A program made the translations under genes and the position numbers. Source: Enoplolaimus lenunculus (Eukaryota). From it: a stretch of 64,000 bases of DNA. The notes beneath the pieces are model-generated. The model was given only the letters and a program-made list of their open reading frames with translations. It did no database searches and was not told the origin of the DNA. The DNA lies in contig JASANG010000864.1 of NCBI GenBank assembly GCA_030248215.1, positions 310,001 to 374,000 on the forward strand, read 5' to 3'. Of this stretch, positions 41,085 through 44,464 are shown one piece after another (position 1 is the stretch's first letter; every line of letters starts with the position of its first letter).

Positions 41085-42202
41085 CTGCAAACAACAACTT
41101 TGATCAATTTCGAAACGATAAATTCTTTCGGTTGTCATTCCAACCCCGCTTTCAATTCAAAAAGTATATACAGCATTTGAAAACAATTTAACATACAGCT
41201 ACAAAACTTTAGACATTAAGTCGCGCTTAGCACAAAAATATATTCCCTAGGCTAAGGTACGACAATTTTAATATATATGCTTGCAGCTGACAATGGAGGG
41301 TGTTCTAAGAGATTTGGATCCGATGGCCAACAACTTCTTGGTCAAACGTGCTAAACCACTGATTCACGATTCTCTACACTCAGCAGCCGAATTTTTATGT
41401 TTGTATGCCTAGCATAAAGCCTTTTCTCCATGTCTTACAACTTCTGCATTAAATAAATATAGACGTTGGACGGTGCATAATACCTACAGTTTATGGCACA
41501 AAACGACATATGCTATGGCATTTTAAAGTTCATTGGCAAAAGTGTGATTTCAACTAACCGAAAGGGTTGTCCATTCCTTTTGCCGAACGCTTCCTTAAGG
41601 ATACACTAATGTATTATATATACACGTAATCCTTACGAGCAATAATAATGTATTGTAAATACACTGAAAACGATATTATTACAAAATACGAATGCAGTTT
41701 AAGATGATTACTGTTTCGATTTTGTCAAGTTAGCTAGAAGATCTAAGTAAATCAATTTATCAAGGATTTTAATGTGTTCCGGATTTGGTATCAGTGAAGG
41801 CAAAACGAAGCCGAATTAGTAATTAGTTGCATCACGCGTACAAATAGACCAAATCCACTGCTACTTTGCCGAATGTGAAGCTTGCATTTCAGACAGTATG
41901 CAAACTTAATTCAATTAGAACACTGCTTTTCAATCTGCAAAACCAATAACATTTCTAATTCTAGCAAATACACTTCTTTCGCGAACAGCAATAATTTCAT
42001 GCTCGCCCTCAATTCTGAGACTTAACCAACCCAACGCATTCAAAAACGTAAGAATTTCGCATTGCTTAGTGATTCTTGTAAGCATGTGAGACATGCTTGT
42101 CCGTTATGTGCACATGCAATATAGTGCAGTGCACTGTATGTATGCTGGCTGACAGCATACGGTCGACAAATATAGTCGACGAAAATGGTAGTTGGACAGG
42201 CG

Positions 42203-42274
42203 GGCTACGTGGTGCAGTGGTAGAGTGCTCGCTTAAGGATCCATAGGCTGAGAGTTCGATCCCCGCTCTAGCCC
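42203..42274 (+). pseudogene. tRNA-derived sequence in 5' LTR (A box, B box, TTTT terminator)
   Basis: TGGTGCAGTGG and GTTCGATCC at canonical tRNA spacing; acceptor stem GGCTA/TAGCC kept, anticodon stem unpaired; TTTT at 42277-42280. Confidence 0.8.
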
Positions 42275-42564
42275 GCTTTTCCAGCTGCTTAGTTGAAAGG
42301 TCTAAAGTCCCGGTTCCAACCTAGACTGACATGGGGGCCACGCCGTGAGCGCAATGGTAAACTGCCGCGCTATGAACACGGTATGCAGTCGAAATTAGGA
42401 TGGACGGTCAAGGGACGACCTTGTTGAAAATAAGGGCATGTAAGCATGTGAGACATGCTTGTCCGTTATGTGCACATGCAATATAGTGCAGTGCACTGTA
42501 TGTATGCTGGCTGGCAGCATACGGTCGACAAATATAGTCGACGAAAATGGTAGTTGGACAGGCG

Positions 42565-42636
42565 GGCTACGTGGCGCAGTGGTAGAGTGCTCGCTTAAGG
42601 ATCCATGGGCTGAGAGTTCGATCCCCGCTCTAGCCC
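42565..42636 (+). pseudogene. tRNA-derived sequence in 3' LTR
   Basis: Second copy, with A box TGGCGCAGTGG and B box GTTCGATCC. Confidence 0.8.
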
Positions 42637-44464
42637 GCTTTTCCAGCTGCTTAGTTGAAAGGTCTAAAGTCCCGGTTCCAACCTAGACTGACAATTCTCA
42701 AATAACTTTTTCGTGCACGTTAAAAATGTATAAAAGTATAAACCGTTAAGATGGTATACTCTGTATTGTTCAAAAGGGCACTGATTCCACCTCATCGACA
42801 TTCTTTAAATCAAATTTGCCTCAACGTTTTCCATTTTAAGGATGTTCATTGTTGAATTTCATTGCCGTCAAATGTGGTAAACTAAAGTTCTCTATTAAAA
42901 CTCTAAAAACACCGTAGTAAATTGGGCCGGCCCACAAAACTTATTTAACGTGCCCAAGCAGACCTTCACATATCGAATGTTAAATGTTGTAATGCAATTT
43001 ACCTAATTTCTCAGTTTGTGCTTTCAGTGTTGGATTGTTCATTTGACTTTTTCTGCAAATAAACAAATTCAAAATTTTTGTTTAAAATTATTTGGCTCCG
43101 AGCCGCCAAATTTTGCCGAATCTGAATCTGTGTTTTTCTTACCAACTGCTCTATTGCTGTGCTGCCCTCTCATTTTGATTTGTTTGTCTAATACCCATAA
43201 ACACAACATTAAAACTACACATACGTACCTTCTAGCTATGTATTCTTTTTCATAGTGAGATCTTGTTCCCGTATCATTCAACTACACCAAGAGAACGAAA
43301 AATCATGTTGCATAAAACTACGTTTTGTCTAACAGTAATCGGCGAACACATGCTGATTGGGTTCCAGAAACACGACTGCCGGGACATTGCGGTTGCGGGC
43401 ACAACCATTTTCGCTCGGGTTTTTAAGTCATTGGACTTTTGGGAAAATCGGATCTTACCCGGAAACCTGAGATTTAAGGAAATTCGGATATTACCACCGA
43501 AATTGGTATTCTGCCTTCTCCGGAAAACTGCGATGTTCGGTGCACCCGTTTTCGTTCGCGATTTTGGAAATTGGGATTTTGGGAAATTGGAATATGAGAA
43601 ATTTTGAAAATATCCACTGAGTCGAACAAACAGAGTTTGCGTATAGAGGATTATCATATGATACTAACAGACATGTGCCGTTTTAGTATCATATGATATT
43701 TTACGAGACAATGTAAATAAATACAAAAATATTTTATAGCGAAAAATTTAAGTTTTGGTGGGAAAATATTTTTTGGCGGAAAAATTCAAATTTTGGCAAG
43801 AAGAGGTTCCGGCAATATCGGTAGTAAAATTTTGCATAATTTTGCAAAATTTATTTGTTTTAGCACGTTTCGTTTTACATTTGTCACAATTTTCAGGAAA
43901 GAACTTCCAATATTTCGCACAAAATTAGCGTAAAACCAAACAACTTATAGACATATTGCACATATTGGCTAAAATTCATTAAGCATCATTTTTGTTTCGC
44001 CTCACCTCCGGCTTCGGCAAGTTTCGTTGACCTCCGGCTGTGCCTCAGGCTCCGCTATTTTTAAGCTCCTGTTGCATCCTGGTATACACAAACTGACGAT
44101 GATTTTTTGATTGCTTACAGGTTTTAATAAGCACATTACCCCGTCTCCATTGCCTCTCAGTCTGCTCGTTGAACATCCTTTATTCCTTGACGACGTTAAA
44201 AGACAAGGTTTTAATCAAATTATATTCCTTCTTTTAAGCTGTCAAAATGACTCTGCTTTTATTCGATCGACGAGGAATACGGATAGCAAAAATAACCGGC
44301 GCTAAAACAAAGAGTGATCAGAATAACGGAAACCTAAAACAGATATTGAATTAGAAAAACGCATTACCGCAAAAATACCGGGCTTAGTGAGAAAATTAAT
44401 CAGCCTGACCTTCACATTATTTAAAACACAATATAGCGGAGGTAACGATGTAAAAAGATTTAAG

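Follow-up and report, generated by a model that had tools for sequence, protein, structure and literature searches.

The element at 42072-42698 of the window (the whole 64-kb stretch of DNA analysed here) is real: it is a miniature LTR retrotransposon of 617 bp without coding capacity, which carries a tRNA look-alike in each LTR and belongs to a young, abundant, high-copy family. The element falls within the definition of Helenus, and it represents a Helenus family that is new as judged by a motif search of the supplement of Kojima (2024; PMC10886601). The architecture as such is already published in that work; what is likely to be new is the host group, together with a TSD of 5 bp that is unusual for animal members. 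We consider it rather probable that this young, high-copy, Helenus-type element uses an internal Pol III promoter and propagates with a Gypsy-type helper and host tRNA-Pro as primer.

Architecture and boundaries of the element

The features of the element are as follows.

42072-42076, + strand: left TSD, ATTCT (from the sequence)
42077-42331, + strand: 5′ LTR, 255 bp, TG...CA (from self-comparison; contig loose ends lie at its limits)
42080-42180, + strand: four predicted tandem hairpins in the presumed U3, at 42080-42098, 42108-42134, 42140-42160 and 42162-42180 (from folding)
42187-42289, + strand: extended stem with arms 42187-42207 and 42269-42289 (predicted pairing)
42203-42274, + strand: degenerate tRNA-like segment of the 5′ LTR (Rfam tRNA model and box pair)
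42210-42220, + strand: A box (pattern match)
42254-42262, + strand: B box core (pattern match)
42277-42280, + strand: TTTT, candidate weak Pol III terminator (from the sequence)
42332-42345, + strand: PBS of the tRNA-Pro type, with no spacer after the LTR (likeness to the PBS of Cer1)
42343-42381, + strand: predicted interior hairpin, candidate packaging signal (from folding)
42426-42438, + strand: weak PPT, 11/13 purines (from the sequence)
42439-42693, + strand: 3′ LTR, 255 bp, including the tRNA-like segment 42565-42636 and TTTT at 42639-42642 (Rfam model match and sequence)
42694-42698, + strand: right TSD, ATTCT (from the sequence)

The anatomy described in the earlier note (5-bp TSD, 255-bp LTRs separated by three transitions, PBS, non-coding interior of 107 bp) held on re-measurement, and the PPT that it placed before the 3′ LTR is present, in a weak form. 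Both LTRs start with TGTAAG and end with CTGACA, and they differ at 3 of 255 positions (42152/42514, 42213/42575 and 42245/42607; K2P 0.012), all transitions. The occurrence of ATTCT on both sides has a chance of about 0.0014 given the composition of the flanks, and the TG...CA ends are incompatible with a 4-bp TSD register at this copy. The interior opens with the TGG-led PBS at 42332. None of the three open reading frames of at least 75 aa over the element matched Pfam, and no second copy of the element was found within the 64-kb window. With two LTRs, a PBS, a weak PPT, a length below 1 kb and a non-coding sequence, the element is a TRIM; that it is a young TRIM with a tRNA-derived LTR segment, as had been proposed, is supported.

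In the interior, 42334-42360 resembles the 5′ half of the tRNA-like segment of the LTR, and a second A-box-like motif lies at 42347-42357, with no B box behind it.

A degenerate tRNA-like segment in each LTR

The Rfam tRNA model aligned over its full length to 42203-42274 (17.7 bits, E 1.2) and to 42565-42636 (20.2 bits, E 0.25), in both cases without reaching the gathering score of 29; ARAGORN called no tRNA in the element, and 5S rRNA was absent from the eight Rfam matches up to E 10. In the cloverleaf, 14 of the 21 pairs form and 7 are broken, with mismatches at 2/5 positions of the T stem and 3/5 of the anticodon stem. When consensus patterns for an A box and a B box were used, the pair occurred twice in the 64-kb window, once per LTR with the boxes 44 nt apart, as compared with an expectation of 0.115 from 200 shuffles. 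Most tRNA genes have a G just before the B-box core; the corresponding base here is A. TTTT follows each segment by 2 nt (42277-42280 and 42639-42642), and these are the sole T4 runs on the + strand of the element. Thus, the tRNA-shaped segment with boxes and TTTT that the earlier note had reported was found in both LTRs, with the qualifications that it scores below the Rfam gathering score and that the base before the B-box core deviates.

Among the 40 of 208 family difference rows that were listed, two differences in the A box occupy its variable R and Y positions, and the B box core has none; in the same rows, 2 of 19 LTR difference sites lie within the 20 box positions, which is at chance level.

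The box pair and the T run suggest a Pol III transcription unit in the LTR, and the tRNA-like segment is probably its promoter; it is predicted to act in that role and not as a working tRNA.

Predicted RNA structures of the LTR and the interior

The U3 hairpin array and the 21-column stem had not been described in the earlier note. The 126 bp before the segment (42077-42202) gave a fold z of -4.06 and the whole LTR a z of -4.6, whereas the interior as a whole was no more structured than shuffles (z -0.45). In the extended stem, 20 of the 21 columns are paired, 4 of them as G.U; the stem prolongs the acceptor stem, buries the TTTT and runs 9 nt beyond it. In a Pol III transcript, the predicted stem could form only in the 3′ LTR.

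The listed family differences in the 21-column stem at 42189, 42197 and 42207 keep or repair pairing, and one difference breaks the terminal G.U. By eye, both sides of the pair 42113-42129 are changed in a subfamily (22-27 contigs per run) and both sides of the pair 42350-42369 in one contig, where independent decay is possible because both are CpG sites. When 24 difference sites were set against the predicted structure, 11 were unpaired, 6 kept, 1 fixed and 6 broke pairing. The 6 breaks compare with a null mean of 8.9 (P 0.11, not significant; the 24 sites are a support-ranked subset), and in the confident helices 2 breaks were seen where 5.3 were expected (P 0.06, not significant, again with support-ranked sites).

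Copies, insertion sites and family variation

The evidence for further copies comes from contigs of three DNA runs (X1, X2 and X3) of one study with two samples; X1 and X2 represent one sample, possibly the source of the window, and X3 lacks the left flank beside the element. On the 1.8 kb of 41500-43300, 9668, 5867 and 3928 contigs per run were found, with depth confined to the element and contig identities spread over bands between 99+ and below 90%. Contigs with a loose end that leads into an unrelated flank numbered at least 111, 138 and 74 per run at the left LTR boundary, and at least 85, 83 and 24 at the right LTR boundary; these counts cover two listed places per boundary at a flank agreement of 0.37-0.43, and summed depth does not equal copy number. 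Since loose ends with different flanks lie at the LTR termini, the family occupies at least about 140 insertion sites and probably far more. The independent insertions expected from the earlier note are thus seen as many different flanks at the exact LTR termini.

X1 and X2 each reproduce both junctions of the copy at 42072-42698 exactly; X3 reproduces the right one. The whole element is spanned by no single contig, and contigs bridge LTR-interior-LTR pieces. No empty-site joint was present among the 15 of 314 joints that were listed. At 42147 and 42318, both LTRs carry letters that are rare in the family (about 93-97% of the depth has another letter), and the copy therefore likely belongs to a minor subfamily. 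The LTR differences at 42213 and 42245 are polymorphic in the family; they may therefore have arisen by template switching, in which case the 1.2% divergence may overstate the age of the copy.

C>T and G>A changes make up most of the family differences in each of the three runs, and some LTR subfamilies have diverged to about 86% identity.

Neighbouring genes and the host

Three genes were found in the window.

16167-21693, + strand: tensin gene with SH2 and PTB exons (50-70% identity to animal tensins, no close relative)
29371-36479, - strand: PHYHIP-like gene with a PHYHIP_C domain, behind which the last open frame has a low-complexity extension of about 600 aa
49418-58326, - strand: CAS-family (p130Cas-like) gene with SH3, serine-rich and CAS_C domains (domain matches)

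The element has the PHYHIP exons found on one side and the end of the CAS gene on the other; upstream exons of the PHYHIP_C gene were not found in the window. The presence of these three genes indicates that the window is animal DNA. The tensin exon showed 47-60% identity to all sequences tested (sawfly 56%, bivalves 55%, fish 50-56%), and a tensin tree of 36 of the 96 matches left its placement unresolved, outside the rhabditid clade. In a quick PHYHIP tree (72 rows, 4 short matches dropped), the query stood beside nematode rows with an SH-aLRT of 95, on a long branch. For the host phylum, a search with the CAS protein returned no match, and the Atlas yielded leads at the family level that scored under 0.9. 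From these comparisons, an early-branching nematode host is plausible; brachiopods and nemerteans were not among the named matches.

The CAS-family gene contains very long open frames, of 945 and 757 aa, and its SH3 domain has an insertion; tensin, likewise a focal-adhesion gene, is about 28 kb away. Several repeats were also seen in the window: a tandem array at 27663-28591 of about six 157-bp units (97-99% identity); a dispersed family in both orientations (18134-19556, 14174-14387, 15477-15671 and 47202-47347), possibly MITE-like, with an internal minisatellite of about 35-bp period; a MITE-like imperfect palindrome of about 200 bp (81%) at 45266-45459; and further short tandem arrays at 6649-7023, 10068-10340, 60106-60347, 38620-39090 and 63581-64000.

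Target site duplication and primer binding site

A TSD, of 5 bp, was seen at one copy only, that at 42072-42698. In the loose-end consensus, T occupies the fourth base ahead of the element and the second base behind it (3/3 runs each), and A the second base ahead (6/6 rows) and the fourth behind (4/5 rows). These letters coincide in a 5-bp and not in a 4-bp register, which is a weak hint, the runs being not independent, the agreement about 0.37 and the flanks AT-rich. Among animal Helenus, 113 of 115 families have a 4-bp TSD and two are undetermined, according to the available part of the supplement of Kojima (PMC10886601), in agreement with the earlier note. The available part of PMC4558846 describes a cestode TRIM family of the 4-bp type, in which 5 of the 57 TSDs measured 5 bp. 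If the 5-bp TSD holds family-wide, the element would stand for a lineage of Helenus in animals that works with another integrase.

The PBS shares 8 contiguous bases, and 11/14 bases in all, with that of Cer1, a Gypsy element of C. elegans whose PBS is complementary to tRNA-Pro and adjoins the LTR (available part of PMC3315495). It also has 8 contiguous bases complementary to tRNA-Pro as published for C. elegans, and the Pro type that had been assigned to it is thereby supported. In the part of PMC10886601 at hand, the PBSs of Helenus-1_TeGr and Gypsy-13_CGi start like the one at 42332. Of the two features that the earlier note took as marks of a distinct lineage, a Pro PBS already occurs in Helenus-1_TeGr, and the 5-bp TSD departs from the published animal Helenus in the available data. 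Host tRNA-Pro is very probably the primer.

The tRNA-like segment ends in the same five bases as tRNA-Pro of Aplysia. With CCA added, its 3′ end can pair with a run of 7 bases of the PBS at this copy and would pair with 9 if 42339 were T, as it is in 83-87% of the family depth.

Proposed life cycle and alternative explanations

The element is almost certainly a TRIM mobilised in trans. In the cycle that we propose, transcription by Pol III would begin close to 42203 and would have to continue past the weak TTTT of the 5′ LTR to reach the PBS. Having crossed U5, the PBS, the interior, the PPT and U3, the polymerase would terminate at the TTTT of the 3′ LTR or beyond it. An RNA ending at 42642 would be 440 nt long, with the tRNA-like segment as R; it would be packaged in a helper particle and then primed at the PBS, and the helper proteins would make two-LTR DNA and insert it with a 5-bp stagger. 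Transcription of Cassandra has been reported to begin in the small-RNA segment of its first LTR and to extend into the corresponding segment of the second (PMC10886601). As a counterpoint, most transcripts might terminate at the TTTT behind the segment and so fail to reach the PBS. In yeast, T-tracts are not always sufficient for Pol III, and nascent RNA structure aids release (available part of 10.1101/2021.08.27.457903).

It is unlikely, in our judgement, that the TRIM is driven by Pol II from a start in U3, with the tRNA-like segment as a passenger, the boxes as a SINE relic and the long stem as a TAR-like or packaging structure in R. The stem does flank the segment on both sides and continue past the TTTT, which suggests that the RNA does not end at the TTTT or starts upstream; AATATA occurs twice, at 42118 and at 42169, the latter some 30 nt ahead of the segment; TTTT does not stop Pol II; and Helenus is known from sequence analysis only, with Pol III transcription unvalidated (PMC10886601). 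However, both AATATA motifs lie in predicted hairpin loops, neither AATAAA nor ATTAAA is present in the element, the boxes are intact at their 44-nt spacing although a third of the cloverleaf pairs is broken, and the layout of boxes and T run recurs in independent Helenus lineages in the available part of PMC10886601. Distinctly unlikely is a model in which the element is an independent Helenus lineage with 5-bp TSDs, possibly the first in nematodes, whose U3-dependent RNA switch solves the terminator problem. Under that model, the transcript of the 5′ LTR would lack the upstream arm, so that no hairpin would abut the first TTTT and Pol III would read on, whereas the U3 arm of the 3′ LTR would pair up to the U run and release the polymerase. 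The switch is a hypothesis, and the predicted stem, which reaches 9 nt beyond the TTTT, accords better with a transcript that continues beyond the T run, or with initiation by Pol II in U3.

Returning to the Pol III cycle, its helper is somewhat more probably a Gypsy element than a BEL or Copia element. BEL/Pao elements produce 5-bp TSDs. So do Copia elements, to which the fungal Helenus with 5-bp TSDs have been linked (PMC10886601), and BEL/Pao elements occur in nematodes (Cer7-12 and Tas; available part of PMC554778); with the departure from the 4-bp TSDs of animal Helenus, these points speak for mobilisation by a BEL/Pao (or Copia) helper, which we nevertheless hold to be rather unlikely. 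A need for such a partner, which the earlier note had raised as a possibility, was not supported, because Mag-lineage Gypsy elements also make 5-bp TSDs (20 of 21 copies in Culex; available part of PMC3286476), and the PBS and its zero spacing resemble Gypsy Cer1, which has the nearest PBS among those compared; a TSD length for Cer1 itself did not turn up in the literature searched. In addition, the one BEL PBS in the available part of the Kojima supplement is of the Lys type with a 3-nt spacer, and Kojima ties animal Helenus to Gypsy via the PBS, including a Pro pair, in the part consulted (PMC10886601). The Cer1-like PBS and the 5-bp TSDs of the Mag lineage therefore suggest that a Gypsy helper explains the data no less well than a BEL or Copia helper. 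A self-encoded primer is reported for C. elegans Cer7. In a comparable way, short Pol III RNAs ending at the TTTT, trimmed after 42274 and CCA-tailed, might prime the full-length RNA at the PBS, with 9 pairs given the family-majority T at 42339 as compared with 8 for the published tRNA-Pro. We regard such self-priming, which would be the boldest form of the switch model, as very improbable, because one extra base is weak evidence (it has a 1-in-4 chance, and would be expected if segment and primer both derive from tRNA-Pro) and the broken T and anticodon stems make the segment a poor substrate for 3′ processing; furthermore, Kojima saw no such complementarity in any Helenus (PMC10886601). A literature search on self-priming returned no match. 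Finally, that the structure is not a retroelement, and is instead two abutting tRNA-SINE or satellite units or an assembly artefact, can almost be dismissed. The contig data do look alike for arrays and full copies, and no single contig holds the whole element; nevertheless, the TG...CA ends, the exact TSD, the placement of PBS and PPT, the loose ends at the LTR termini in more than 100 contigs, the recovery of both junctions and the bridged LTR-interior-LTR pieces have already largely refuted it.

Comparison with known systems

A young family with many sites and one T run per LTR under a defined stem makes two points testable: whether tRNA-bearing TRIMs originate as Pol III transcripts, and by what means a polymerase that meets one and the same terminator in two identical LTRs passes it in the 5′ LTR and halts in the 3′ LTR. 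The structured LTR offers a testable idea on terminator control. Helenus-type families can, in addition, raise the number of predicted tRNA genes artificially, as was described by Kojima for rust fungi (PMC10886601).

Helenus (TRIMp3) comprises TRIMs with tRNA-derived LTR sequence of several origins, and many independent origins are expected (Kojima, 2024; PMC10886601); no nematode appears in Table 1 of that paper. The present element resembles Helenus in being a TRIM within the range of 311-1263 bp, in its tRNA-like segment per LTR with boxes kept and cloverleaf decayed, in its PBS and PPT, in the T run that follows the segment in many Helenus, in the Pro-type PBS of Helenus-1_TeGr (as far as the source was available) and, for fungal and plant members, in the 5-bp TSD. 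By eye, U3 also seems to pair with sequence behind the segment in Helenus-2C_CGi. The element differs from animal Helenus in the TSD length at this copy and in a PPT that is weaker than their G-rich PPTs (available part of PMC10886601), and from Helenus more generally in a host whose proteins are distant from those of the fish, bivalves and hymenopterans compared, and in the U3 hairpin array and long stem, which are absent from the description in PMC10886601. A search of the Kojima supplement with six short motifs matched no catalogued Helenus family: four were absent, and the other two matched only the Pro-type PBS or an unrelated fungal interior.

The literature search on Helenus/TRIMp3 returned only Kojima (2024) and papers citing it, and no tRNA-bearing nematode TRIM was among the matches listed (20 of 126 and 12 of 31) in the nematode TRIM and SINE literature; Gao (2016) mentions unpublished nematode TRIMs in the available part of PMC4717578. 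Further comparison literature, available in part, comprises PMC13570524, PMC2836005 and 10.1101/073510.

Cer1, with its tRNA-Pro PBS abutting the 5′ LTR, provides a model for the helper that is compared by the PBS alone; unlike the present element, it is autonomous and coding (PMC3315495, in part). The ta-TRIM of taeniid cestodes is likewise a high-copy animal TRIM with an 8-nt PBS, and its TSD length differs between two genera (4 bp and 5 bp), which was read as a change of helper; it differs in its Leu PBS, and a tRNA-like LTR segment is not mentioned in the available part of PMC4558846. The 5S-derived TRIMp3 elements Ajax and Cassandra share the small-RNA promoter in both LTRs, Ajax being an animal element with a 5-bp TSD and Cassandra having transcripts that can read through the LTRs; in the available part of PMC7215508, their promoter is of the 5S type (A, IE and C), whereas that of the present element would be of the tRNA type, with A and B boxes.
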